Assembly (NCBI GenBank): GCA_038087875.1
Contig: CM075989.1
Span: 7,256,001-7,320,000 of the forward strand
Reading direction: 5' to 3'
Length of the DNA stretch: 64,000 nt
Origin: Malacoraja senta
Lineage: Eukaryota
Each line of letters begins with the position of its first letter. The first letter of the stretch is position 1. The translations under genes were made by a program, and so were the position numbers. Below, piece after piece: positions 1,690 through 62,622 of this stretch. The notes beneath the pieces were generated by a model that ran no database searches, had not been told where the DNA came from, and saw only the letters and a list, made by a program, of their open reading frames with translations.

Positions 1690-2045
1690 CCCCCCCCCCC
1701 ATAGCCTCCAACCTTATTGGTTCCCAGCCCCCACGCGGCCCCTTTTTACCTTCTCCCCAAATTCCTTCAGCAGAACTGCCCTGGCAGACCCATCGTTTCT
1801 CCCTGCTCCTGCCCCACTGAAATAATTTCTACAAACCTCGATTCCATCCTATCTCCCTTCCCCCCCCCCCCCCGATCCATTCCCTTCCCACCTATGTCTA
1901 AGACATTAAGTTCTGAGGAAGTGTCCCGACCCAAAACTTCACCTGTTTCTTTTCTCCAGAGATGCTGCCTGACCTGCTGAGTTACTCCACCACTTTGTGT
2001 CTATCTCCGGCTTAAACCAGCATCCACAGCTCCTTCCTGCACAAC
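1690..2045 (+). mobile_element. Penelope-like element fragment: RT N-terminal motifs joined to the terminal-repeat tail
   Basis: ORF 1717-1980 reads PFYLLPKF..PGRPIVSPCSCPTEIIS..LDSILSP, the PLE RT finger motifs. The pLTR tail follows from about 1912 (ctgaggaagtgtcccgacccaaaac...gagttactccac...cagcatcc). Confidence 0.8.
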
Positions 2046-3854: not shown

Positions 3855-4190
3855 AAGAGGTATACAAAATCATGAGGAATGGATCAAGTAAACGCAATCT
3901 CTTGCCCAGCATCGGAGAATCGAGAACCTTAGGTTTAAGGTGAGGGGGGAAGATTTAAAAGGAGCCTGAAGGGTAACGTTTTTACACAAACGGTGGTGGG
4001 TACATGGAACCTGCTTGTGGAGGATGTAGTTGAGACAGGTACTATTGTGACATTTAAGAAACATTTAGACAGGTACATGGATAGAGGGTAGGTTTAGAGG
4101 GATATGGGCCAAACACAGGCAGATGGGACATGTTGGTCAGTTTGGGCAAGTTGGGCTGAAGAGCCTGTTTCCACTCTATATGTCTCTAAG
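3855..4190 (+). mobile_element. CR1-clade LINE 3' fragment
   Basis: gaggtatacaaaatcatgagg...tttttacacaaacggtggtgggtacatggaac...gggctgaagagcctgtttcc; collinear with the copy at 16995-17418. Confidence 0.8.
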
Positions 4191-4614
4191 ATTATTTGGA
4201 ACCTTGGCATCATATTTGACCCTTAAGTTGACTTTTAGACTTCTAATCTGCGTCCATGTCCCTTTAACATTGCCCTATTCTGTCCCTGTTCATCGTCTGA
4301 AATCTTTAATCACATCTTTATTTCTAGAGTTGATAATACCAACACACTTGTTTTTACTCTCTTAAAAAAAAAAAACGGAGTTGATTCCAAAATGTTGCTG
4401 TTCACATCCACCAAGTTTTGTTCTCCTTTTACCCCATGCTTGCTGCTGGTTTAGACAGGTTCCAGTTAAGCAAAATCTTAAGTTTAATTTTTTTTCTTCC
4501 AAATGGCACATGGACGTTCTTGAACCTATCAGGTCTCCAGATCAATGGCCTTGTGTATCTGGGCGTTTCCAGCTCCACTTCCAGCCAATTTCAAATGGAT
4601 AAATGTAACACCAT

Positions 4615-4802
4615 GGGCGCCGCACGATTGCAGCCCCGCCAACAGTCTGTCTGTTTTTTCGTCTTTTTAATTTTTTTTATTGTGTGTTAAAAGTCTGTGT
4701 AAATGTTCTCTGGTTTGTTTTATGGAGGGGGTCGGGGGAAACCTTTTTCCAGTTTCTTACCTTGCCGGAGATGCGATTGTTTTCCAGGTCGCATCTGCGG
4801 TC
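4615..4802 (+). mobile_element. 5' portion of an unclassified GC-rich non-coding retroposon (family of 10605-11280 and 44745-45322)
   Basis: Reverse complement matches 45120-45320 (gcagcc..gccaac(a/g)gtctgtct, T-rich tract, ccttg(c/a)cggagatgcga). Confidence 0.6.
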
Positions 4803-4929
4803 AGTGTGAGAGTGGGAATGGGAAAGGGAATAAATGTGTTTACCACTCTGCAGCCTCTTGCTTTCCTGTGCATTGGAAATGCCGCACTAGGCCATGGTGC
4901 AATTAGTCAAGATACTTTCTAAAGAATGC

Positions 4930-5055
4930 CGGAAGGAACTGCAGATGCTGGTTTATACCAAAGATAGACACAAAGTGCTGGAGTAACTCAGCAGGTCAGG
5001 CAGCATCTCTGGAGAAAAAGGAGTGACGTTTCATGTCAGAAATCTTTTTCAGACT
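4930..5055 (-). mobile_element. PLE terminal-repeat (pLTR) fragment
   Basis: gaaggaactgcagatgctgg...gacacaaagtgctggagtaactcagc...gtgacgtttc...ttcagact, the antisense of the pLTR tail. Confidence 0.8.
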
Positions 5056-5429
5056 CTCGAGTCTACTTTCTAAAGTGCATCTGTAGAAGTTTGGGCATTC
5101 AGAAACATATCAAATCTCTTTGAACGTGAGGAAGTAGAAGGACTGGTGTGCCTTCATCATGATTACATCTGTGCTCTTCATCATCTCTGACTTTAATCAG
5201 TCTAGTGGTAGTGGTTGTAGCTTCAGCTGCAATTCCTTCCCTGAACCTCACCATCTCCTTTACATATTCTGTTGTGTTGCTGCAAGTAAGAATTTCATTG
5301 TTCTATCTGGGACGAATGACAATAAAACATTCATGACCCTTACTCCTTTAAAGCTGCTCCTTAATAGCAGCTCTTTATGCAAGCTTGCGGACATCTTCCG
5401 TAATATCTTTATTTACTTATTACTATTTA

Positions 5430-5640
5430 ATAACAATAATAATAGTAATACATTTTATTTATGGGCGCCTTTCAGGACTCTCAAGGACACCTTACAGATT
5501 GAAACAAGCAAATTACAAACATATAAACAAAATGAGACAAAAAAGAATTAGCAGGGACAGCAACAATACACAATTCAAAGAGAGAGCAGCGGCAGCTAGT
5601 CGCGCCAGTGTTCACGCACCAGGCCCCCTCTCCTTGTTAC
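5430..5640 (-). mobile_element. L2-clade LINE/SINE 3' tail
   Basis: Minus strand reads gtaaggtgtccttgagagtcctgaaaggcgcccataaataaaatgtattactattattattg. This is the typical L2-type stem-loop followed by a (TAT)n tail. Confidence 0.65.
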
Positions 5641-8600
5641 GTCCATGTGAAAAAAATCTCATGGTGCAAGGTGGAAAAGGTGCAAGGAGTTCACCAGATG
5701 TCCTGCCAACATTCTGCGTTTAGTCAACATCGCCACAGATGATTCATTGGTGACTCCCTCCTTTCCCTTTTGTGGGACCTTTGTGTGCAAGCAGGCAATA
5801 ATATTTACCTGTTTAACCATGATAGAACTCTGTAGTTCATTGTGCACTGAGATGTTGACAGAATGATAAGATACTGTAAATGCATAGTGTATTTGGAATC
5901 TGCTCCACCTGTTTAAAGGCAGTACTAGGCTTTCCTTTGAGTATCATGACCCAGTTCATTTGCACCCATAAGAGGCTTACAAAACCAGCGCCAAATTTGG
6001 CGCAATGAAAACTTGGCACTTGATTTGTAAAAGCAGTAGAACGCAGGTTAGAATGTATGAACATTATTTCTTCTCTTGACATTTTCTTGACCAAAAAAAA
6101 ATTTGGACTATTTCAGTGTTGAGAGTTTGCTTTTAAGGATTTCTGGTGGTTTGTTTGTATTTATTTGGGTAGGTGCGGAGAAGCAAATGTTCTGAGCTTT
6201 TAAGTGCTCCCTTTCTCAGGACTGAACTGCCGAAAGTGATGTTCGACTTATAAACGGCACCATTCATTCCCTGAAACCATTTATGTACAAGGAAACCAGC
6301 CTGTAAATTATGTCAAGTGGAAGGTTGTCTGTAAATAGTGCACTTTTTATTCCAGTCTAATTGCTCACTTCCTTAAGTTCGGTTTTATTCCCTTGCCAAC
6401 AGAGCACCCGACCACATGCTTTGCTCATCTCCATCATATATAATATGGCAGTCGGTAGCAGACAAAAGCCAATGGATTTCCCTGATCTTTGATTAAAGGT
6501 GAATAAAGAATTTCCTCCTAATTCTTTTCGCCCCTTATTTTCTTGCCTTGAATGTTGATTTGGAGATTTAATGTAAATACAGCAGAGTCCCTTGAGGTAT
6601 TATAGCAAAACTTTCTTCAGCAAAAACTTTCTTACAGTGATCTCATTTCCATGCCTGTGCTCATATCATTTTGTGTTCTCCATTTTCCTTTTAAAAAAAA
6701 ACTCAATCTTTGCTTCAAAAGCCATTTGAGCCAGTGTATTCTGTACTTCTAACATGTCTGTGTGGGAGGGATTCCTCTGATTTCTCTTTTTAAATGTTCT
6801 GATAATTATGAGTCGACGGCTCCTGTTACTAATTCACCAACCAGCTGGCACAATCTTTCACTAACTACTCTCTCAAAACGATTATGTTAAACATCTGTTG
6901 GATTTCTCCTTGAACTTCTCTCTTCCGGTGGAAAGGAGCAATTTTCTCCTTGTGCTTTTGTAACACTGAGCAGGGGATCATAAATTCTTTCTTGGATTGC
7001 AATATCCCGGGCATGAAACCCTCTGAACTGTATACTGTCCTACTGTGGTTCAACTAATGACACAAATAAAATATAATGTTGGTAGTCTATGTATCCTGTT
7101 TGCCTTTTGCCTTCCAGCTGTGTCTTGTAAGTATGTGTATAGCTGCACCTCCTAGATCCCACTTTCCCTCTGTTTGCATTAAGCAGGTGCTGGCTTTTGT
7201 CCAGGTGGCAGTCCTTTGAAATCTTAACCTGTGCTTGTAAGGCGTGACGATGTCGCTGCTGGGTTTAAGGTGCCTTCGCTGACCAAAAGTGATTGTCTAT
7301 CTTCACGGTGGCACCTCTTTATCTAATTCCGAGCACTATCACTGTCACTTCTTCCTCCGTGTACATGTTCATGGTCAGCAGCTGTGACCGTGACTGCACC
7401 CAATTTACCACCCCATCCACTGTCATTTCATTTCTATCTCACTCCCATTCTGTTCCTGTCGTCTGAATTATTTCAATACTGAGGAGTAATTGTATTCGCT
7501 CCTTCGTACTCAACCACAATCATTGCCAGATTTAAGCCAGTGCTATTTTCATTTTCACACCAGAATACAACATTTTGGGAAAAGCCACAAGAATGTGTCT
7601 CAATCGCCTGTTGTTCACAGCACAATTGGTGAGAATCTTCACTGGAGACCTTTGAGTGATCTTAATCCAACTTCAATGTTATATCTTGCACGATATGTTG
7701 TGGGCACCCTTAACCTTTACCAGTGGACTATGGTCGGCTTGTTTGTATTCATGTATAGTCTTTTATTTGACTGGATCGCGCGCAAACAAAAGCGATTCAC
7801 TGTACCTTGGTGCACATGGCTATAAACTAGGGTATTAGCTTTGTTTTCTCTCCTTCCCCCACCTCTTTCCTCCCGGTGTGTGATCAGAGGCAATTTACAA
7901 ACTGCTTGACCATGACTTCACATCAATCACAGCTGTCTCGCTCACGGGGTTATTGTGTTGATTAGTGCTAATTAATAATCCTTTGAACTAATTTTTTTTC
8001 CCATTGACACCATGGAATTCTTTAAATTATAATGCGTTTTGGAGAAGTTTGCAGTGCACTATTCTATTCTGGAGTTTCCAGATGCCATGTAGCAGCTTTG
8101 TTTGTGCTCTTGTATTAAGGGTTTCCTTTCCTCCCCTCCTGCCGAGTGTGCCTTATGTATTCTAGCTTACCTGCTGCTATAAGAGTGGACGTTTTCAAAG
8201 TGGAGCCAAGAAACGCTGCCCCGTGAGAGGGGGCGCTTAAGTGCAGTCCCTTGACACGGCCTGATAATGCTAATGGCTGCTTAAACACAAATGTGCTGGA
8301 AATGCACAGCAGGTAGAATTGCTTTGGAGAGGAAGATAGTTAGGGTTTCATGCTGGGACCCTTCTGCAAGAAGGCTTTTTAATGAACGATGTCGACATGC
8401 AGCGCTGGTTCAGATGTTAATTGATTGCTGCACTTATTTTATATTTCCAACATTTTTTTTTAAACCGGTTCTAAAATCCATTTGATTTTCATGGTTTCTC
8501 TGTAAGCAATTGAATAACCTAATTATTGGCAAAGCAAGTCTTTCAGCAAATTAGTGAGATGGAATAAAAAGTCTGGTGTTTAAAAAATAAAAAAAATAAA

Positions 8601-9096
8601 AAAATCTAGATTGATTGAACAGGAAATATTGGACCAAAAATGCAGGTCAGGCCATTCCCAGAGTATTGTCTACAAATTTGGTTCCCTGTGTTGTAAAACT
8701 ATTTGGTAGTGCAGAAATTGTTCACTGGACGAATGCCTGGGTTCAGGAGGTTGTCGTGTGACAAAGGAGCGAGTAGATTCACTGTAACCTCAAGAGCTTG
8801 GAGGAATAAGGTAAAATCTTGTCAACGTTCAACAGAATCTTGCACCTTGACATGGTGGATGGTGCGAGGTTTGCCTGTATTAGGGACGTCTGTTCTGAGG
8901 GACACAGTCTCAGCAAAAGGGTTGGCATTAAAGATTGAGATGATGAATTTCTGGTTGGAGGTGAGGATTCTGCATCTGAAAGTTGTGCAGCATCTTTAAT
9001 GCCGAGAGATTTTTCGATGAGTGACTAGAGTTTTGGAGATCAGACATAAGAATGGTTTGAGGTCAGCAATTAGATCAGCACAGGATCATGGGGTCT

Positions 9097-9770
9097 TGTG
9101 TAGGAAGGAACTGCAGATGCTGGAATAGCTACTTCCCCACAGCCATCAGGCTATTAAACTCGGCTCGGACAAAACTCTGAACATTAATAGCCCATTATCT
9201 GTTTATTTGCACTTTATCAGTTTATTCATGTGTGTATATATTTATATAATGGTATACGGACACACTGATCTGTTCTGTATTCATGCCTACAATGTTCTGT
9301 TGTGCTGAAGCAAAGCAAGAATTTTATTGTCCTATCAGGGACACATGACAATAAACTCTCTTGACTCTTGGTTTAAACTGAAGCTGGATTAGCTCAGTGG
9401 GACAGGCAGCTGAGGAGGAATGGGTGACGTTTCGGGTCGAGAACTTCTTCAGATTAGAGTCAGGGGAAAGGGAAATTAGTGATATAGACATTGACGTAGA
9501 GAGATATAGAATAAATGAACAAAAGTCATGCAAAAATAGTAACGATGATAAAGGAAACAGGCCATTTGTTAGCTGTTTGCTAGGTAAGAATGAGAAGCTG
9601 GTGCGACTAAGGTGGGGGAGGGTTCAAGAGAGAAGGAATGCAGTGGTTACTTGAAGTTAGAGAAATCATACCACAGGGTTGTAAGCTGCTCAAATGAAAT
9701 ATGAGATGCTGTTCCTACAATTTGCATTTAGTCTCACTCTGACAATGGAGGAGGCCTAGGACAGAAAGGT
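9097..9770 (-). mobile_element. PLE 3' fragment (GIY-YIG C-terminus plus pLTR) interrupted by a Rex1/Babar tail
   Basis: pLTR sequence resumes at about 9371 after the insert. 9650-9770 is antisense of the GIY-YIG C-terminus (QHLIF...). Confidence 0.7.
9122..9370 (+). mobile_element. Rex1/Babar LINE 3' end
   Basis: ggaatagctacttccccacagccatcaggctattaaac (NSYFPTAIRLLN) plus a 3' UTR nearly identical to 60660-60891. Confidence 0.85.
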
Positions 9771-21720: not shown

Positions 21721-22372
21721 TTTTTTTTTAAAGTACTAAAGTCTTAGCATTCCTTCCGAGCTAGGATACTGTTCAATTCACCTCGACCCCATTGAGGACA
21801 TTGGACTTTGTCTATAGAACTGATGTGCTACAATACAGAGAAATATATCCTACACTCTTTATCTTCCTCTTTGCTCTATCTATTGTATTTGCATTTGAAA
21901 TGATTGTATCTATGTATTGTAAATCTGATCTGTTTGGATAACATGCATAAACAAAGCTTTTCACTGTATCTCTGTACACATGACAATAATAAACCTAAAC
22001 CTGCTCCTGTTCTTAGCAAACAATCTTATTTCTGAATCTTTTCCACAACCATATTACTTTTGACTATTTTAAATTTGACAGGTTTGTTTAGCTTGCCATT
22101 GAGCACTTAACATTTCTTTTCGATGTTCATGTGCAAGTCATATTGTGTATTCACAATTCAATCACCTTTTAACACCCCACCAAGATTTTCTGCCTTGGTT
22201 TGGTTTTATTTCAGACCGACAAAAAGAAAGGGAATGTTATTCATTTGGGAGTTGTTTCTGTGAGCTATTCTATTTCACTGCCTTAAGTTGCAAAGGACAG
22301 TTATGATGAAAGTCAAGTGGTGCATGAAACCCGGTGCCTAAAGGGAAGGCCAGAATGATGAGGCAACTATTT

Positions 22373-22744
22373 AAGAAGGAACTGCAGATGCTGGAAAAGC
22401 AAAGGTAGACAAAAATGCTGGAGAAACTCAGCGGGTGAGGCGGCATTTATGGAGCGAAGGAAATAGGCGACGTTTCGGGTTGAGACCCTTCTTCAGACTG
22501 ATGTGGGGGTGGGGAGGGTGGGAAGAAGAAAGGAAGAGCAGGAGACAGTGGGCTGAGCGAGAGCTGGGAAGGGCAGGGGAAAGAAGGAAAAAGCACGGAC
22601 TACCAAAAATTGGAGAAGTCAATGTTCATACCGCTGGGGTGTAAACTACGAAATGTTTAAGAAGGAACTGCAGATGCTGGAATATCGAAGGTAGACAAAA
22701 ATGCTGGAGAAACTCAGTGGGTGAGGCAGCATCTATGGAGCGAA
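22373..22744 (-). mobile_element. Partial-tandem PLE insertion (pLTR + GIY-YIG end + pLTR)
   Basis: Two direct pLTR copies; flanking direct repeat gcaactattt(aa) at 22363 and 22745. Confidence 0.85.
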
Positions 22745-23939
22745 GCAACTATTTAAAATAGCTATCCTCGTGTGCAAAATCAACATGTTTGACAAATCAT
22801 ACTCTTCTCTGATAATGTACTTCAGATATATGCCAAATGCAAAGACTAACATTAACATGATGTCAAGGATGCACTTGGAACATAGAACAGTACATCACAG
22901 GAACAGGCCCTTCAGTCCACCATGATGCCAAGATAATCTCCTCTGCCTGCATGTTATCATTATTCCTCCATACCCTGCATATCCATTTAACTATGTAAAC
23001 GTTTTGTATGGGATATGGGCCAAATATAACTCGTATAAAGCTTGGTCAGCATTGATGAATTAGGCTGAAGAGCCTGTTTTCATGCCATATGACTCTCTCT
23101 GTGTGAACATTGTTTCTACAATCCCACCTCATCAAAAAGAACAGATCATGGGTCCTGAGGTTATCCCAACCCAAAAGAAGGCATCCCTGACAGAGTATCA
23201 CTCTCTCGATAGTGCAGTTTCTAATTTGCTTTGTTTCAAAGATGTTAAAAACCAATGCCTGCGTACTGACTATTTTGTTCATCTGCCCGAGACCACAAGG
23301 CCTTTAATAGCCAGCCAGTGACTCATGATGTGACTTGTTTATGTTGGAGAATGCGGAGGAAAGATTTTAAGAAAAAAGGGCTGAGCTTTGTGAAAGCGTG
23401 CGTTAGCAGAGTTTCCCAAAGATAACCAAAAAACCCAACTCCAACCCACATCATTAATGGCCCATGGCCCAACTACTACTGAAAGGTACCTCCAGTTGGC
23501 TGTCTCACCCTTCAAATCCAAGACTGGGAAAACGTCATTAGTTTCAGGGCACATTGGCTTTCACTCTCAGGAGAACTATTGGGTTGAGGGTGATTAGAGA
23601 ACATGGGGTTTTATAGAGAAGTGATCTTTTATAATTGGGGAGTGGCAAGAATGTGGATTGGATGATGGTAGCAGGGGGGTTTCTGCACCAGGAGCCAATG
23701 GAAGTCAATGAAAAGAGTTGTGTTTGAAAATATTTAATCATCTTTTGATCCCCTTGTGCCGACAGGAAAAGCATGCTTAGAGAAATAACCAGATAAAATA
23801 CAACTCATTCTCCTGGGCATACTAGCCTTAACATTGACTTTACTAATAGCAGGACCTCAATTATAGCCTCAATTTTCATTTTTGCAGGTGGCAAGATACT
23901 GACATGCCCAACCCATACTGTAACATCAGTGATAGAGTG

Positions 23940-25492: not shown

Positions 25493-25684
25493 GTTTAAGA
25501 AGGAACTGCAGATGCTGGAAAATCGAAGGTACACAAAAATGCTGGAGAAACTCAGCGGGTGCAGCAGCATCTATGGAGCGAAGGAGATAGGCAACCTTTC
25601 GGGCAGAAACTCTGAAGAAGTGTTTCGGCACGAAACGTTGCCTATCTCCTTCGCTCCATAGATGCTGCTGCACCCGCTGAGTTT
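25493..25684. mobile_element. Fold-back PLE pLTR mini-element
   Basis: Antisense arm 25493-25610 and sense arm 25611-25684; 17-bp TSD ccacaggaatatacctt (25476-25492, 25685-25701). Confidence 0.9.
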
Positions 25685-28255: not shown

Positions 28256-29109
28256 TCTCCACCCTTTTCTCATCCCAAATGCTATTCCAAAAAATCTCCT
28301 CAAACCCTGTCAAGAGCCTTTGCAGGATTGGAACAATGTGTTGCACTGCCAGCTAATAGAACAAATGCAGATAATTCCACACCACTTTGTGTACACAGTT
28401 AAATGCCTGGTTAATTTTATCACCCGCTGAGCATTAAAGGTTGTGAACTTATTCAAAGAAGGGGAGAGAGGTGCTGACAAGCAAGTTAATTGTCCAATCT
28501 CATCCTGCGTATCATGGGTATTCATCTCTAATGTGTGTGGGTAGGCACTGCGGGAAGGATACAGATTCTGTGTTTGCTAAAACATTCATCACTCTCCAAT
28601 AAAGATGAATGACACAGATAATACATTTGTCAAAATCCCTTAAAGAAGTTCCAGGTAAATGGGTGCAGGCTGAATTGATGAGCTTTTCCTGAGATGTGGG
28701 TCTAAGTTGTTTTGAGGCAATAACATCTTACTGTTCAGTTATTGTTGTGGTCACTTTTGAAGAAACCTGAGAAGGCAAAGAAATGTGGCCATTGTCACTG
28801 ATTAATGTAGCTGAGAATATGATTTGCTTCACACCATGAATATCATCTAGCTCACCTCAGCCTTCTATGTTTAACCACCCATACACTATAGGTTCTTAAA
28901 ATATCTCACCTGTTTCCTGTGACAAAATCTGTCTTTTTTGTTTGGTTTATTGCTAAATATCTTGTATTAATAGTCTTTAATTTAGGAATTCTCCTGCAGT
29001 TCTTCCAGCTATTCTCCGTTCTGCTCTGCCCAATCTTAATTTCAATAACTTTTACTAGATTGCTCTCTAAATCTCACGTATTCATGGAGAAAATCTGTCA
29101 TGCTTGACT

Positions 29110-29695
29110 GTTCTATGTAACTCCAGGCCCACCTTCATCTACTGCATCTGGTGTTTCCAATGTGGGCTCCTGTACATCGGTGAGACCAAGCGTGCACCTA
29201 TGCTTGGTCCACCTAGGTCTACGCGATCTCCCAGTTGCCAACCATTTCAACTCCCCTTCCCATTCCCCTACTGGCCTTTCTGTCCTGGGCCTGCCAGAGT
29301 GAGGCCATACGCATATTGGAAGAACAGCTCTTCGTATTTCGCTTGGGTAGCTTACAATCCAGCGATATGAACATTGAATTAGCTAATTTTAAGTAACTTC
29401 TACTCACGCTCCCCTCCATACCCCTCCTTCCTGCACCCTAGTAGTTTAACCAGTTCCACAGTTCGCCACAATATATCCCGCTTGAGATCACACCTTCCGT
29501 AGCCAACAATTGGCCAACCAGGGCACCACCCTGCCTAAGGTCATCTGTTGCCAACCCCGATTAGTCCTGGTCTTTTCTCCCCTCCAGCTCTTCACCCCCA
29601 CCTCACCCCACCCCACATACTTGGAGAAGGGTCCCGATCCGAAATGTCACCTATGCATGTTCTCCAGACCCGCTGCTGCCTGACCCGCTGAGTGT
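29110..29695 (+). mobile_element. PLE GIY-YIG fragment plus 3' tail
   Basis: FIYCIWCFQCGLLYIGETKR (GIY-YIG signature); HFNSPSH and EEQL..RLGSLQ blocks follow in shifted frames; pLTR at about 29620-29695. Confidence 0.85.
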
Positions 29696-30624
29696 AATGA
29701 CTGGGCAGGTCACTCCCTTTGAAAGTAGCCGGGCGGTGGAGGCAGGTGGAAACGCGTGTTCCAATCAAAGTTGAATGTTCCAACCAGCTGCTTTTCCTCG
29801 ATTGTTATGAGGGGTGAGGCAGGATTCGAGATCACTTTGTTGGCTGGTCATGTGGTCATAAGAGCAGAATTAGGCCATTAGGCCCATCAAGTCTACTCCG
29901 CCATTCAATCATTGCTGATCTATTTCTCCCATTCGCCTGCCATCTCCCCATAACCCCTGACAACCGTACTAATCACGATTTCTTTCATTTTTGTAAATCT
30001 TGTTAACGGGCTCAATTACAGTTTCAACAGTACAGGAGGTAGTGGGGGGGGAGACGAGTTCAAATAAAGGGCTAGACTACGTTAATCATCTCTATAATAG
30101 TGATGCCCTTGCAAATATCTACCCTTGGTGGGCCGAAGCACCTGTTTCCCTGCTGTATCTCTAAGTGCTTCAACTTATCAAAGACTTTCTCCGTGTTTAT
30201 GAACATTCTTGGAGTGCCGATCAGAGTCAAGTCCTTTCCAGTCATTTCCTTTCACAGGACACAGCAAACTGCTGGCTTCCTTGTTTTGGCTGACACTCCA
30301 ACTGTTGTCCATGTATTTTGTTTCACCGCCCGTCAAAGTTCAGCGGATCAGATGGTGACAGGTTGTATAGAACATACAGAAACCACCGTTGGACATAATT
30401 TGCATTGGAATTTGTTTATATAAAAGAGCTATTCTAATAAAGAGAAATTTTAATGGGATATGCCTGGATTGTTACTGATGTTTATCTGGTTTACCCAACT
30501 TGGGAATATATTCACTCAACGTGGTCAAAGGTGATCACCCACAGGGCAGTTCAGCTCCACTGCTTTTTATACTGCGTTCAAGTCTAAAGGTTGTGCATTC
30601 AAATCTTACTTCAAGTTTAGTTTA

Positions 30625-31758
30625 AGGTAGATAAAAATGCTGGAGAAACTCAGCGGGTGAGGCAGCATCTATGGAGCGAAGGAAATGGGCGACGTTTCGG
30701 GTCGAGACCCTTCTTCAGACTGATGTGAGTGTGGGGGGGGGGGGGTGGGGCAGGAAAAATAAAGGAGTAGGCGGAGACAGTGGGCTGTGGGAGAGCTGGA
30801 AAGGGGAGAGGAAAGAAGGAGAAAGCAGGGACTACCTGAAATTGGAGAAGTCAATGTTCATACCACTGGGTGTAAACTACCCAAGCAAAATATGAGGTGC
30901 TGCTCCTCCAATTTACGGTGGGCCTCGCTCTGGCCATGGAGGAGGCCCAGGACAGGAAGGTCGGATTCAGAATGGGAGGGGGAGTTGAAGTGCTGAGCCA
31001 TCGGGAGATCAGGTTGGTTATTGCGAACCGAGCAGAGGTCTTGGGCGAAGCGATCGCCAAGCCTACGCTTGGTCTCACTGACGTAGAGCAGCTGACACCT
31101 AGAGCAGCGGATGCAATAGATGAGGTTGGAGGAGGTGCAGGTGAACCTCTGCCGCACCTGGAAAGACTGCTTGGGTCCTTGAATGGAGTCGAGGGGGGAA
31201 GGTAAAGCGACAAGTGTAGCATTTCCTGCGGTTGCAAGGGAAAGTGCCAGGAGAGGGGGTGGTTTGTGTGGGAAGGGACAACTTGACCAGGGAGTTATGG
31301 AGGGAGCGGTCTCTGCGGAAAGCCGAAAGGGGAGGAGATGGGAAGATGTGGCCAGTGGTGGGATCCTGTTGGAGGTGACGAAAATGTCGGAGGATTATTT
31401 GTTGTACGTGACGGCTGGTAGGGTGGAAGGTGAGGACAAGGGGGACTCTGCCCTTGTTACGAGTAGGGGGATGGGGAGTGAGAGCAGAGTTACGGGGTAT
31501 AGAAAAGACCCTGGTGAGAGCCTCAACTATAGTAGAAGAGGGGAACCCCCGTTCCCTGAAGAATGAAGACATCTCCGATGCCCTGGTTTGGAACACCTCA
31601 TCCTGGGTGCAGATGCGGCATAGACGGAGGAATTGGGAGTAGGGGATGGAGTCCTTTCAGGAAGCAGGGTGGGAAGAAGTGTAGTCCAGATAGCCACGGG
31701 AGTCAGTGGGTTTGTAGTCTATCACCTGTCGGTCAGTAGTCTATCACCTGCGATGGAG
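30625..31758 (-). mobile_element. Penelope-like retroelement (Neptune-type architecture), 5'-truncated and frameshifted
   Basis: RT thumb (DSIPYSQFLRLCRIC), linker RVPLVLTFHP..SAFRRDRSL, Cys cluster CNRRKCYTC, and GIY-YIG NLIYCIRCSRCQLLYVSETKRRL..HFNSPSH..EEQHLIF. A pyrimidine tract and pLTR follow. Probable TSD agtttagttta (30614-30624, 31759-31769). Confidence 0.92.
30691..30718 (-). ncRNA. Minimal hammerhead-ribozyme-like core in the PLE pLTR
   Basis: Minus strand reads CTGAAGA-A-GGGT(CTCG)ACCC-GAAA-C-GTC. It has the core boxes, a 4-bp helix II and a palindromic ACGT helix III; helix I is only about 2 bp in this copy. Confidence 0.6.
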
Positions 31759-32465
31759 AGTTTAGTTTAGTTTAGAGCAAAGATCCTATAGCGCAGGAGG
31801 ATCTTTGGTTTAGAGATACAGGGCCCTGGAAACGGGGCCTTCGGCCCACTGAGTCCGCACCGACCAGCGATCACACATTAACACTGTGCTGCACACACAA
31901 GGGACAATTACATTCATACCAAGCCAATTAACCTACAAAAACCTGTACGTGTTGGGAGTGTGGGAAGAAACTGAAAATCTTGGTGAAAACCCACTCGATC
32001 ACGGGGAGAACAGGCGGCACAGTGGCGCAGCGGTAGAGTTGCCGCCTTACAGCGCTTGCAGCGCCGAAAACCCAGGTTCGATCCTGACTATGGCCGCTGT
32101 CTGTATGGAGTTTGCACGTACTCCCCGTAACCTGCGTGTTTTTTCTCCGAGATCTTCAGTTTCCTCCTGCACTCCAAAGACGTACAGGTTTGTAGGTTAA
32201 TTGGCTTGGTAAATGTAAAAATTGTCGACCAGCGATCGCTCCGTACACTAACACTGATGCACACACTAGGAACAATTTACAATTTTTGCCAAAACCAATT
32301 AACCTACAAACCTGTACGTCCTTGGAGTGTGGGAGGAAACCGGAGCACCTGGAGAAAACACGCGGTCACAAGGAGAATGTACAAACTCCAGACAGACAGC
32401 ACCCGTAGTCGGGATTGAACCCAGATCTCTGCAAGGCAACAACTTTACCTCGATGTCACTGTGCC
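31759..32465. mobile_element. Cluster of three V-SINE pieces (minus 31759-32010, plus 32012-32225, minus 32226-32465)
   Basis: V-domain, head and tail sequences recognisable in alternating orientation. Confidence 0.85.
31778..31807. mobile_element. 30-bp hAT-type miniature element
   Basis: Perfect 10-bp TIRs caaagatcct / aggatctttg with a 10-nt spacer; 8-bp TSD gtttagag (31770-31777, 31808-31815). Confidence 0.75.
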
Positions 32466-33519
32466 ACTCCAGTGGTTCAGTGGTAGAGTCCCTATTAATT
32501 TCGGTCCCTATGTCCTTACAATTGATCCAGGCCTCCACATGTTAATTTAACGGCAGGAGTTTTGCCTGTCCGGAAGCCTCAATCCCAAGAGTAGAGTATT
32601 TTGGTGTCGTGTGTGTCGGAAACGAGTGAGGAAATTCTTCCTCTTCAATGAAGAGGCTCATTGCAATACCAGCTGGATTGTGCATAAGACCCAGTCATGC
32701 AAATCCTTGCACAACCAGAATACTATAACTGTCTAAACTCAGAGAATAGTCTTTCTCTTCCGTGACAGAACTCAAGAACATCTGTGATCTTTCAAGGGAA
32801 CTCTTATTATAATAAGTTATCGTCTGTGCCTCCAAATTGTATACTCGGATTGCAGAATACGATCTGTATTTGGCTCGGTGACTTGAGGCTGTGTGTTATA
32901 TAAATGAATCTTGACCTGACTAATGGCTTTTTGAGAACAGGATGAGATCAGTTGGAATAATCAGAACCAGCTGATATAACTCATCTAATACTTACTTCTA
33001 CAGTAGTTTTGTGATTATGTTTCCACAATAGGATAATAAGCTTTGATTATTTTCTCCATTTAAAAAAAATATTTTGGCCTGTAGGGTTTTTCTGTTAGCC
33101 TTTGGGCCTTGTTTATTCTTGTTGGTGAACGCATTGAAGTGTTGAGCAAGGCAGCAAAGGGTCCTGCCCAAGTGTGGGTGCCGCGTGCAAGCTGAGAATT
33201 GGTGTTGTTCACGTCTGAAATGATAATGCGTTAATCCACTGTCTCACTGTGGCGCACAGCGGGAATATGGTTCTATTGTACGTCTAGCCCTGAGGCGCGA
33301 GCATATGTTGGTTGATTTATCGATTGTAATTTTTGCTGGCTTCTTCCTAAAAGGTTGTTTCATTTGGAGATCATTATTTAATCTGTCGGGCAGATTAAAT
33401 GGAAGAAAATGCCCAGCACACACTGATGCTGAGGTTAGCATTTTGTGATGTGTCGGGCTCTCAAGAAGCTAAATGATTTTCATGCCTCGGGTGGAGAAAT
33501 ATAAAAGATAGTTGATTAA

Positions 33520-34160
33520 AGCCCCTGTCCCACTTACGTGTCCTTGGCACGCTAATTACGCGACCTCGTGGTCACGTTGAGGCGCGACGGTCCCGCACGA
33601 CGTCATTTGAAGATGGACACAAAATGCCGGAGTAACTCAGTGGGACCGGCAGCATCTTTGGAGAGAAGGATGTTTCGGGTCGAGACTCTTCTTCAGTCTG
33701 AAAGAAGGGTCTTGACCCGAAACATCATCCATTCCTTCTCTCCAGAGACGCTGCCGGTCCCGCTGAGTTACTCCGGCATTTTGTGTCCATCTTCAATTTT
33801 CTTGGCTCCGCTCTGGGAGTAGAGATGGGGGCGGATCTGGACCGCAACGGCCGTGAGCCCCAGGCCGAGCTCGGCGATCGTTTGCCTGCTTCTGTTGTTG
33901 TTGGAGGTGAGACGTTGCGTCGCGCCAGGGTCTTGGGCCTGTCCCACTTTGGCCGTCAGTTACGCGACAGGCCGGTGGCGCGTGAAGATTTAATTAGCTA
34001 CAAAATTTCGGAGCGCCGCGCGATACCGCGCTCAACTCCATACCCCTCCGCGCTTCTCAGTGGAACCGGCCCCGCGCGGCCACACGATGCTTGTGCGCCT
34101 CAACGCGGCGATGAGGTCGTGTAATTTGCGTGCCAAGGACATGTAAGTGGGACAGGGCCT
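33520..34160. mobile_element. PIF/Harbinger-type MITE containing a nested fold-back pLTR (about 33607-33795)
   Basis: Imperfect TIRs of about 66 bp starting agcccctgtcccactta / ending taagtgggacagggcct; TSD TAA (33517-33519, 34161-34163). Confidence 0.88.
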
Positions 34161-41499: not shown

Positions 41500-41690
41500 A
41501 TCTCTCTCTCCCCTGACCCATCCATATCTTTAGTTTCCCTCTCCCCTGACTCTCAGTCTGAAGAAAGGTCTCAACCCGAAACATCACCCATTCCTTCTCT
41601 CCAGAGATGCTGCCTGCCCTGCTGGGTTACTCTGACATTTTGTGTCCATCTTCAGTGTCATTTAGCATCCGTAGTTCCTTCCTGCACACC
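41500..41690 (+). mobile_element. PLE 3' tail/pLTR
   Basis: ctcagtctgaagaaaggtctcaacccgaaacatcacccattcc...gtagttccttcctgcac. Confidence 0.8.
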
Positions 41691-56643: not shown

Positions 56644-56996
56644 CTTTTGTACAGTACAACACAGAATCTAAAGTCTTCCTGATTTACGAAAGGGTTATGA
56701 TCCAGGAAACAGACAAATCAATTTGCAAGTGGAAGAGGTTGGGTGAAAGGGATTTTGGCAATGTTGGCATTTTATACACGCAGTGGAAGAGAATGGCATA
56801 TGATGGTAAGAAAATAGAATCATCTATTGAGGATATCCCATTCCCCAATGGGTCAATGTTGTTCCAGTGAATTTTTTGAAATTGAGAGATACCTATATCA
56901 TGTTTCTCATCACATAACAGGATGGTAATATAATTGCAGGCTGCTTTTACATTCAACTTGTGGGAGGGAAGGAGTCATCAGAAGAGGCAGTGTGAT

Positions 56997-57196
56997 NNNN
57001 NNNNNNNNNNNNNNNNNNNNNNNNNNNNNNNNNNNNNNNNNNNNNNNNNNNNNNNNNNNNNNNNNNNNNNNNNNNNNNNNNNNNNNNNNNNNNNNNNNNN
57101 NNNNNNNNNNNNNNNNNNNNNNNNNNNNNNNNNNNNNNNNNNNNNNNNNNNNNNNNNNNNNNNNNNNNNNNNNNNNNNNNNNNNNNNNNNNNNNNN
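56997..57196. other. Assembly gap (200 N)
   Basis: Run of N; the round length suggests a placeholder of unknown true size. Confidence 0.99.
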
Positions 57197-57217
57197 ATGC
57201 CCATTACTGTTGTTTAT

Positions 57218-57555: not shown

Positions 57556-58299
57556 CATCACCATCTATGTGTGGATGGAGTCAATGGAAGGGAGGTTGTA
57601 TGGGCAGGTTAATATCTAAAATTCAGCACTCTGTGAAAAAGTCTGAAGAAGGGTCTTGATCCGAAACATCACCCATTCCTTCTATCCAGAGATGCTGCTT
57701 GTCCTGCTGAGCTACTCCAGCACTTTGTGTCAATCTTGAGAGTTAAATGTTTGTTGTTTATTTATTGTCAGTGCCAATTCTATTTCGATAAATTAACATC
57801 CAAAACTTCATGCGTTTGCCAACACTATTTATTATCATTATAGTTGATTATTTCAACATATACCCAGTGAAAAAACTTTCCTTTGCGTGCTATCCAAAGA
57901 CAAGACGACGCATGGCTATTCATATCTCACCAATACTAATGTTTTCCCAATGGTTACCACTGTAGCCTTCAATATGAGCCAGAAATAACGGATGAACTAT
58001 TTGAACTGTGCATTGATTACTCTTGATGCATGTTATGGCCAAAGACAAAGGTGGCATTGATGAGCTGCAGTGCTGCTCAGAACCTGTGTACTTGAACTTG
58101 CCTACACATGAAGTACCCATGGTTGCAGGTCTTTGATAATAATGGCACCAATTTGCTGCAATTTCATTAAGGTTATCACACAAAGCATAACATTCATCCT
58201 TAAATTGCACTCATTTGAGGGCTGGTCTCCTCCGTGCCACTTGGGTTGAACCAGGTTGGCCAATTATTCATGAACTTTTAAGTTGTACCTTATCCCGAA

Positions 58300-59049
58300 C
58301 CTTCTAAATGGTGGCCGGCTGGGAAAAGGGGAGATGCAGCGAGACCTGGGTGTCATGGTACACCAGTCATTGAAAGTAGGCATGCAGGTGCAGCAGGCAG
58401 TGAAGAAAGCGAATGGTATGTTAGCTTTCATAGCAAAAGGATTTGAGTATAGGAGCAGGGAGGTTCTACTGCAGTTGTACAGGGTCTTGGTGAGACCACA
58501 CCTGGAGTATTGCGTACAGTTTTGGTCTCCAAATCTGAGGAAGGACATTATTGCCATAGAGGGAGTGCAGAGAAGGTTCACCAGACTGATTCCTGGGATG
58601 TCAGGACTGTCTTATGAAGAAAGACTTGGTTTATGCTCTCTAGAATTTAGGAGATTGAGAGGGGATCTTATAGAAACTTACAAAATTCTTAAGGGGTTGG
58701 ACAGGCTAGATGCAGGAAGATTGCTCCCGATGTTGGGGAAGTCCAGGACAAGGGGTCACAGCTTAAGGATAAGGGGGAAATCCTTTAAAACCGAGATGAG
58801 AAGAACTTTTTTCACACAGAGAGTGGTGAATCTCTGGAACTCTCTGCCACAGAGGGTAGTCGAGGCCAGTTCATTGGCTATATTTAAGAGGGAGTTAGAT
58901 GTGGCTAAAGGGATCAGAGGGTATGGAGAGAAGGCAGGTACGGGATACTGAGTTGGATGATCAGCCATGATCATATTGAATGGCGGTGCAGGCTCGAAGG
59001 GCCGAATGGCCTACTCCTGCACCTAATTTCTATGTTTCTATGTTTCTAT
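58300..59049 (+). pseudogene. CR1 (HER1-like) LINE ORF2 C-terminal fragment with complete 3' UTR
   Basis: RDLGVMVHQSLKV..KKANGML..LYRVLVRPHLEYCVQFWSP..EGVQRRFTRLIPG..RRLRGDLIETYK..FFTQRVVNLWNSLP; tail ttctatgt x3. It is 5'-truncated and lacks the catalytic RT motifs. Confidence 0.95.
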
Positions 59050-60891: not shown

Positions 60892-62622
60892 TAATCCCTG
60901 ATGCCTCAGGATCTGTGTTTTTTGCGATTGGGAAAAACTGTTCTTGATATCTTTATAGGATTCTTTGCAGCTCTTGCAATTGACTTGCAAGTGTTGGTTA
61001 ACTTAAAAGCTACAGCATCTCACTTCTGAATCTGATTTCTTGCCCTGACTAAGGCTTCCTGGAAGGTGGCGTGGGAAGGAGCCTGTAGGATTGATAAATG
61101 GACCCATGTACAGAACCGTCGCATTAATAGAACAACTGTAGTTTTCTAGAGCTTTATTCTTGGTTAATTCTCCCATGATGTTGAGTGCATGTACCTTCAA
61201 TGCTCTGTCGATTTTCTATCCAAATTCTCTCAAAAAACCGAACCAGTTCTAGATCCATTGCAGTACATGAGCGTAATGGGCACCCCTTACAACAGACAGT
61301 CCATCAATGAATCCCCACCCCCCCCCCGCCCCCAGTCAAAGACTCTCCTTCAGAAATGCTTGAAGATCATTACTCAAAGGTCAGTGCAGAGGCTTTCATT
61401 TACATTTAGTTCCTCAGTCTCTATTATTCAGATACACGAGGAAATGCAGATGTTAGTTTATTTAAAAAAAGACACAAAGTGCTGGAGTAGGTCAGCGGGT
61501 CAGATAGCACTTCTCTTCCAGCTTTCTCTCATTCCCCCCCCCCTCCCACCCCCCGCCTCATCAAGGATCCCAATCTGCAGTATTGACCATTCTCCTTCAC
61601 CAGAGATGCTGCCTGACCCGTTGAGTTACTCCAGCACTTTGTGTCCAAACTATCATGTGCCAGCTTGGTCCTCATCAAAGCCATTGGGTAGTAGCTCTAC
61701 CAGCTGCGCCACTGTGGTACCTTTCTGCATTCCAGATCTATGTTGGCCACTTAAAAGCCTTACTGTTCTTGTGTCCATGGCCCATGGATCCTTGTTAATG
61801 ACATTGCCACCAGTGAAACAGATTCCCCTGAAGTACTTTTGTTAAAACTCTCGATTTTAAACACATCTGTCTTTGCTTCAAGGAGAATGATCATGGTTCT
61901 TCCATGTAAAGTCTCTGACACTTAGTACCAAGTTGGCAAACTTCCTCTGCCTCCTCTCCAAAGTCGGGTCTAGAGGATTGGATTGCCAAGGACTAGCCAG
62001 TGATTTATAAAAGATGGCATGACTTCCTTGTTTAGTATTCAAGGCAGTCATTTATAAAGTTATTTTTTTTAAATAAGCTCCAGCAACCTGGCCCATCAGT
62101 TCAAAGATGATTATATGTGAATTGGCCGTTCTTTTTAAAATTTTATTTATTCACAGGATGTGAATGTTGGCCCAACCTGTCGGCATTTATTCCGAATTCC
62201 TGAATGGCTCCCAAATATAATGGTCCTCGACACCAGTTAAAAGTCACCCTGCTGGTGGCCTTGCCGAGGCAGTGTGAAGTGTGGATGGAGTCAATGGACG
62301 GGAGGTTGGGTATGGGCTGGGTAAAGATTCAGAACTCTGTGAAGAAGTCTAAAGAAGGGACTCGACCCAAAACATCACCTATTCCTTCTCTCCAGAGATG
62401 GCGTCTGACCCACTGAGTTACACCAGCATTTTGTATCTATCTTCAAAGAAATTTCTCACTCCAGTCCAAAATTGTTGACCGCTTATTTTGAGAGCATCTC
62501 TCCATCATGGCGAACACTTCACCAAGTTAGCTTTCTTTCATTCTTTTAAACTTTAAAGAATTATGACCGAAAAGACTCCCTAATGTGACCTCGATGATGA
62601 CATTTGCTCCTGTGCCAACGTA

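Follow-up and report, generated by a model that had tools for sequence, protein, structure and literature searches.

On the minus strand of the window, by which we mean the whole stretch of 64,000 nucleotides that was analysed, positions 31758 to 30625 hold a 5′-truncated, dead Penelope-like element (PLE), which reads from the remnant of a coding sequence through a pyrimidine-rich tract and a minimal hammerhead into a short 3′ segment (Table 1). These limits had been drawn in an earlier sequence-only reading and are right, the element being bounded by an 11-bp TAAACTAAACT repeat, the true length of which is ambiguous because it is located in a (TAAAC)n run.

Table 1. Features of the PLE at 30625-31758 and of a related partial tandem in the window
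Feature	Positions	Strand	Basis
Candidate target-site duplication TAAACTAAACT, 5′ copy, inside (TAAAC)n run	31759-31769	-	sequence
22-nt tandem duplication at the truncated 5′ end; frame broken at the RT-core end	31706-31749	-	sequence
RT-core end, thumb (YKPTDS...SSHP...IPYSQFLR) and linker; in-frame TGA 31659-31657	31200-31758	-	alignment
Zn-finger-like linker motif C-NRRK-C-YT-C (CX2-5CxxC, Neptune/Nematis); frameshift just past it, near 31195	31207-31239	-	alignment, PMC8557442 (cited passages)
GIY-YIG endonuclease (EN) with CCHH (CxxC...HFNSPSH); frameshift near 30867; stop TAG 30834-30832	30832-31199	-	alignment
Pyrimidine/C-rich tract of the pLTR, varying between subfamilies	about 30724-30831	-	sequence
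Palindrome TCAG-T-CTGA, also initiator-like TCA(+1)GTCT; 5′-end hotspot of the short copies; overlaps the helix I 5′ strand and C3-A6	30715-30723	-	sequence; putative role as transcription start (TSS)
Minimal type I hammerhead, 2-bp helix I	30689-30720	-	consensus fit, distant-locus model
3′ pLTR segment: CCUUC, AGAUGCUG arm, GCUG..CAGC hairpin; ends at the short, tail-less 3′ terminus	30625-30688	-	sequence, predicted fold
Candidate target-site duplication, 3′ copy	30614-30624	-	sequence
Partial tandem of the same subfamily: 3′ fragment and 34-nt tail, then EN end, pLTR, hammerhead and tail	22368-22748	-	sequence

Just 5′ of the element lies a short inverted repeat with 15-nt arms (31773-31812), next to a cluster of nested, inverted SINE-like repeats (31820-32470) which we take to resemble tRNA-derived fish SINEs; ARAGORN found no tRNA in this SINE-like region. 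Elsewhere in the window, open frames at 58274-58948 (+) and 43543-43043 (-) resemble C-terminal remnants of LINE RTs, presumably CR1-like and Rex/RTE-like, and a run of N (assembly gap) at about 56990-57200 adjoins a low-complexity C/T tract.

The coding remnant

The GIY-YIG coding sequence recognised in the sequence-only reading is real: in tblastn searches 31722-30867 joined full-length RT+GIY-YIG proteins at E values of 1e-57 to 1e-60, and the match is colinear with the last third of these relatives. The frame covering the thumb and linker had 3661 relatives at E up to 0.001, and of the 14 scanned with Pfam 11 had GIY-YIG and 10 had RVT_1, while the broken reading-frame pieces of the element itself gave no Pfam domain (0/3). 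The closest named proteins, at 55-67% identity, are PLE remnants of whale shark and stingray; six of the ten relatives looked up were named proteins, all from whale shark or Hypanus sabinus, so that the host is probably an elasmobranch.

The colinear protein match reveals the layout of an EN+ PLE, where RT is followed by a C-terminal GIY-YIG in a single ORF, even though the RT core has been truncated away and the frame is broken by the 22-nt duplication, the TGA at 31659-31657 and the two frameshifts near 31195 and 30867. The endonuclease retains the CCHH motif of EN+ PLEs, as C-SR-C ... H-FNSPS-H aligned with the relatives, and carries two catalytic changes, from the YIG glycine to S and from the EH histidine to D. 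A CX2-5CxxC linker is characteristic of Neptune and Nematis (PMC8557442; this and the other papers are cited here for selected passages), and such a linker, CNRRKCYTC, is present between RT and EN. Because the RT core is missing, the placement in a Neptune-like clade comes from this motif, which is common to Nematis, and not from an RT tree. The identity of 30625-31758 as a PLE is well supported.

The hammerhead and its relatives in distant loci

The motif downstream reads as it had first been written, CTGAAGA-A-GGGT-CTCG-ACCC-GAAA-C-G-T-C, at 30718-30691 on the minus strand, and its position is also as described, past the ORF stop TAG (30834-30832) and the pyrimidine tract, 114 nt after the stop. 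Its landmarks are C3 at 30718, the extra A at 30711, helix II at 30710-30707/30702-30699, GAAA at 30698-30695, a loopless helix III made of the palindrome ACGU at 30695-30692, and the cleavage triplet GUC ending at 30691. The catalytic core (C3-A9, G12-A14, A15.1-U16.1 and H17, with the extra base after A9 and G10.1-C11.1) is entirely intact, and the motif fits the published min-HHR consensus, CUGANGAH-G..C-GAAAN-palindrome-NUH (PMC4209133), and helix I, estimated at about 2 bp beforehand, is exactly that (U2.1-G1.1 and G2.2-C1.2). The exact core pattern occurs four times in the 64-kb window where shuffles expect 0, and 27 times if up to three changes are allowed; the full hammerhead descriptor accepts three copies in the window, our element among them. 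An intron like that of D. virilis, which would run from the GT at the stop codon to the CAG ahead of the core, was considered as well and is unsupported, as no spliced junction was seen in the window or among the 15 joints listed for contigs of outside runs.

Two results could be taken to mean that the motif is a chance resemblance in the 3′ UTR of an ordinary retrotransposon. Rfam covariance models gave no hammerhead family at E up to 5 in the window or up to 10 in 261 bp, and the proposed comparison of core with flank gave little contrast: counted in the 27 full-span arms of the window, the core is conserved at 268/297 and the 3′ flank at 1246/1458, a slight excess when pooled (p 0.03) that did not hold per column (p 0.14). 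However, the latter test is weak inside one genome because the copies decay neutrally and the core CpGs mutate freely (the commonest core changes are CpG decay, G12>A in 7/27 and G16.2>A in 11/27), so that weak in-window conservation of the core is what dead copies should show. Some miRNA-type Rfam matches in the window fall on inverted PLE pairs (33621-33782, 25552-25679).

The distant loci speak against chance. We fetched 80 distant RT+GIY-YIG loci, 49 of which cover the EN end and 250 nt or more beyond it, and in 18 of these 49 the motif stands on the sense strand 97-537 nt downstream of the EN end, compared with 149 nt in our element. The same descriptor gave 0/49 on the antisense strand, a mean of 0.02 in shuffles and one match within ORFs; in its strict form it found no motif in 31 of the 49. 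Three pairs among the distant loci are near-duplicates, and after setting aside two duplicates and three loci with a longer helix III, 13 of the 18 were left for analysis of pairing. In these, helices I-III covary, with 39 two-sided changes matched by 0/500 shuffles, a result that is partly circular because the set was picked by a pairing descriptor; helix III positions 15.2-16.2 are UA in seven, CG in four, AU in one and GC in one. A model built from only those 13 loci matches the element at 26.2 bits (E 2.8e-5); of its matches in the window, 33 in all, 29 are PLE cores. With this match, the strand- and position-specific occurrence in distant PLEs and the fit to the published consensus, the chance reading is largely refuted and we regard it as extremely improbable. 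The hammerhead is a real, inherited motif of PLEs, and the sequence-only claim of a PLE with a minimal type I hammerhead, a palindromic helix III and an extra A after A9, which are published traits (PMC4209133), is supported by the tests across lineages. A second hammerhead was seen upstream in three distant loci, inverted in L013:1087 and direct in L027:29 and L061:1675, which are the usual pLTR arrangements.

Whether the hammerhead of this copy would cleave is doubtful, because helix I is only 2 bp and its active dimer is predicted to fold worst of the 17 compared. Helix I is 3-6 bp in 18/18 distant matches, though the descriptor allowed 2, and the predicted gap between the active dimer and the best dimer fold is 18.6 kcal/mol here but only 4.6-14.9 kcal/mol in 16 relatives. 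In the predicted folds helix II has a probability of about 0, the core GAAGG pairs with the downstream CCUUC in what would be an off-state, and two strands would prefer to pair via the UCAG-U-CUGA palindrome. It can be hypothesized from this that the hammerhead is vestigial and never cleaves, the core being kept by descent or by selection on the overlapping palindrome or promoter. The perfect 5-bp helix I of an older window copy at 800-710, which implies that the stem may have shrunk, would agree with such a loss, as would the in vitro cleavage of only one of nine Xenopus retrozyme dimers (bioRxiv 2026.07.22.740005). Nevertheless, the majority base fits the hammerhead consensus at every core position, across subfamilies with differing 3′ flanks, and position 1.1 holds a base that pairs with U2.1, A or G, in 23/24 copies; 2-bp helix I motifs have been published for D. 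virilis, Culex and Oikopleura (PMC4209133); and cleavage by the anole PLE ribozyme requires the PLE protein (PMC11167929), a dependence invisible to nearest-neighbour folding. We therefore hold a purely vestigial hammerhead to be a serious possibility but short of even odds. Since helix I has 2 bp, or 3 bp with a bulge in some copies (an extra A-U pair past the bulge in 8 of 21 scored, where our element has C), and the GAAGG/CCUUC fold competes, the hammerhead of this lineage probably cleaves, if at all, only as a dimer helped by protein.

Older and more diverged 3′ units are found at 800-710 (-), where helix I is CAGTT/AACTG, and at 46473-46395 (-). At 25612-25640 (+) helix II has changed on both sides from G-C to U-A (GTG/CAC), its loop is UUCG and the cleavage triplet is GUU, in a single copy that may be due to chance.

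The short repeats, their ends and a possible route of insertion

A profile of the 3′ 100 nt found 53 arms in the window, covering 4413 bp, and none in the reversed window. By hand count these arms represent about 41 insertions, with 10 head-to-head pairs, one partial tandem and one that is split. The element had been called the parent of the many short repeats, which is true loosely at most: its diagnostic 3′ sequence occurs in 8 of the 53 arms, itself included, and since it is also dead, 5′-truncated and tail-less, it is not the parent but a longer sibling. The other arms belong to sister subfamilies with longer EN remnants of their own at 9771-9381, 29071-29693 and 41537-41688. The best explanation of the short repeats is that they are copies of the 3′ end, from this and the sister subfamilies, which decay neutrally.

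The short repeats of 100-135 bp could alternatively form a separate, non-autonomous, SINE- or retrozyme-like family copied from short transcripts. Their 5′ and 3′ ends are sharp and common to copies; in contigs of four outside runs the 3′ unit is about 5-20 times deeper than the EN part (as summed contig depth, which is not copy number, and in which the EN part may be under-represented because the subfamilies differ more there); and in 4/4 of these runs the short unit is joined head to tail, 30720 leading back to 30634. On the other hand, the subfamily diagnostics are identical in short and long copies, other 5′ ends are spread out between +55 and positions past -100, and the window holds no tandem array of hammerhead units. 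Moreover, a template for the anole RT had to include 172 nt of ORF in addition to the pLTR (PMC11167929), and since the short units stop at or before the tail, transcripts made from them may be unsuitable as substrates. A separate family is thus unlikely, and we retain the origin of the short repeats as 3′-end copies.

Several rearranged units accompany these copies. At 1735-2042 (+) an RT N-terminal fragment (FYLLPK..GRPIVS..CPTE) stands about 60 nt upstream of a hammerhead and tail unit, as an internally deleted or template-switched PLE might; at 35734-35595 (-) an internal deletion joins the EN end to the 3′ unit, with most of the hammerhead gone; and the units at 57565-57737 and 62270-62444 (+) have about 75 nt of non-PLE upstream sequence in common and different 3′ flanks, either an old local duplication or a chimeric unit. 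In outside contigs (13 of X19 and 2 of X1) a joint from 30721 to 30684 is a 38-nt direct duplication of the core, whose two adjacent cores would make a natural dimer.

At the 3′ side, an optional 34-nt tail follows 14 of the 3′ units, and with the inverted and partial-tandem insertions the family shows the optional 30-40 bp tail and the insertion types of EN+ PLEs, our element being tail-less. The downstream stems that the sequence-only reading had noticed are present as sequence, GCTG..CAGC here and AGATGCTG..CAGCATCT in tailed copies, where the pLTR is paired with the 34-nt tail; they show no covariation beyond relatedness in the window, as the pairing of the two structures was equalled by 27/500 and 34/500 shuffles and RNAalifold gave no consensus structure for the window copies. 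Each of the two 3′ ends lies 20-26 nt past a CCAGCAT arm able to pair with the same ATGCTG, and this pairing, on which the covariation is neutral, is a possible basis for two RT start sites. Tail motifs with no remaining pLTR at 9123 (-) and 39405 (-) are possible tail-only insertions. Target duplications of at least 10 nt were flagged for 8/53 arms, compared with 18/300 random pairings; five are at junctions, where they are 10-17 bp long and mostly AT-rich, and three look spurious.

If our element behaved like the anole PLE (PMC11167929), its protein would have nicked AT-rich DNA, and reverse transcription would have started at either of two positions within uncleaved pLTR RNA, leaving either the short end, as in our element, or the end with a 34-nt tail. 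It would then have run through the hammerhead and the endonuclease and halted at the end of the RT region, and the hammerhead would not have been needed for insertion. Taken as a whole, the best explanation, to which we give a probability of about 85%, is a dead, Neptune-like EN+ PLE insertion that was presumably primed internally on uncleaved pLTR RNA, in which the hammerhead is inherited and dispensable for insertion.

At the 5′ side, 27 of the 53 arms were called with ends within -6..+1 of C3, and 21 (about 17 insertions) after a filter that removed the six arms with pyrimidine-rich upstream DNA, the automated calls being imperfect, with an upstream lean and stops at indels of the pyrimidine tract. 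By inspection, about eight arms end inside the 110-nt upstream tract. Among the loose ends listed for contigs of the four outside runs, the ends also pile at 30720-30723, with a consensus agreement of 0.32-0.45. None of the 53 arms has a 5′ end clearly at the cleavage site, the one called near it depending on a 2-point chance extension. These ends, 21 near the edge of the core and none clearly at the cleavage site, suggest run-off copies of uncleaved RNA.

The palindrome at this hotspot hints at how such copies might arise. TCAGTCT presumably fits initiator consensus sequences, and initiators have been described in PLE pLTRs (PMC2377424, PMC3846280). The short repeats could then be run-off cDNAs of a 'strong-stop'-like kind: transcription of the pLTR would start 3 nt ahead of the hammerhead core, on the A of TCAGT, reverse transcription would be primed internally about 95 or 130 nt downstream and would reach the 5′ end of the RNA, and the cDNA would be joined to a target to give a short copy. 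A fold-back on the TCAG-T-CTGA palindrome would give a head-to-head pair, self-priming having been proposed for the head-to-head inversions of PLEs (PMC3846280), and a jump to another RNA would give a partial tandem. This route would explain the sharp hotspot, the use of uncleaved RNA and, since only 3 nt would precede C3, the shrunken helix I. However, the initiator-like motif was seen at the equivalent spot in 0/18 distant PLE loci, so that the idea of a transcription start is family-specific at best, and fold-back on the palindrome alone, or RT failing at the entry to the C-rich tract, are alternative sources of the hotspot. We put the run-off route forward tentatively, with clearly less than an even chance.

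Relation to known systems

PLE hammerheads, tails, inversions and dispersed single motifs from truncated PLEs are already published (also PMC6765202, PMC8969392), and the element itself is ordinary. Our motif has the traits of PLE min-HHRs (PMC4209133), namely the CUGANGA core, a nucleotide after A9, G10.1-C11.1, a loopless palindromic helix III, a U-rich upstream tract and a position in the 3′ pLTR of 5′-truncated PLEs, with the Acropora Neptune and Crassostrea motifs as the closest look-alikes among those listed in the cited passages. It differs in its 2-bp helix I, against a 3-bp consensus, and in its helix II of only 4-5 bp. The alignment rows of Fig. S3 in that paper, as far as cited here, include no cartilaginous fish, and in the literature searched, which lay outside Repbase, Dfam and some supplements and was covered in selected passages, we found no account of elasmobranch PLE hammerheads or of a 5′-end hotspot at the hammerhead edge.

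The Neptune clade (Craig et al. 2021, PMC8557442) shares the C-terminal GIY-YIG with CCHH, the CX2-5CxxC linker, a microsatellite-like insertion site, inverted and partial-tandem insertions and a 30-40 bp tail; unlike full members, our element has only the last third of the ORF left, and its assignment to Neptune/Nematis is made by the linker motif. PAc, a Poseidon of Anolis carolinensis (Frangieh et al. 2024, PMC11167929), is alike in its two 3′ ends about 34 nt apart, its AC-rich termini, its AT-rich targets and the uncleaved hammerhead kept in genomic copies, but belongs to another clade, Poseidon, which is without the linker finger, and the cited passages of that account mention no clustering of 5′ ends at the edge of the hammerhead. 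Short pLTR-derived units with a type I hammerhead are likewise seen in non-LTR retrozymes (Li et al., bioRxiv 10.64898/2026.07.22.740005), which have been reported from one chondrichthyan. They are defined as tandem arrays of non-coding hammerhead units, whereas the window copies are dispersed monomers and inverted pairs with no such array among them, and our element is a single copy that keeps coding sequence; rare tandem joints of the hammerhead unit do occur in contigs of the outside runs.

The family as a whole preserves, like a large fossil record, the products of PLE reactions. What was shown in vitro in 2024 for a Poseidon PLE, internal priming on uncleaved RNA, agrees with three features of this family from a second, Neptune-like clade: its two 3′ ends, the AT-rich duplications at its targets and the absence of 5′ ends from the cleavage site. 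Were the hotspot a transcription start, solo pLTRs, inverted pairs and partial tandems would all have a simple source, and their origin is a part of the PLE cycle that is still open. And if the density of the window, about 41 insertions per 64 kb or 7% of bases, held across the genome, the number of hammerhead-like units would be far above that reported for coelacanth and Xenopus, which is 4,000-9,000 per genome.
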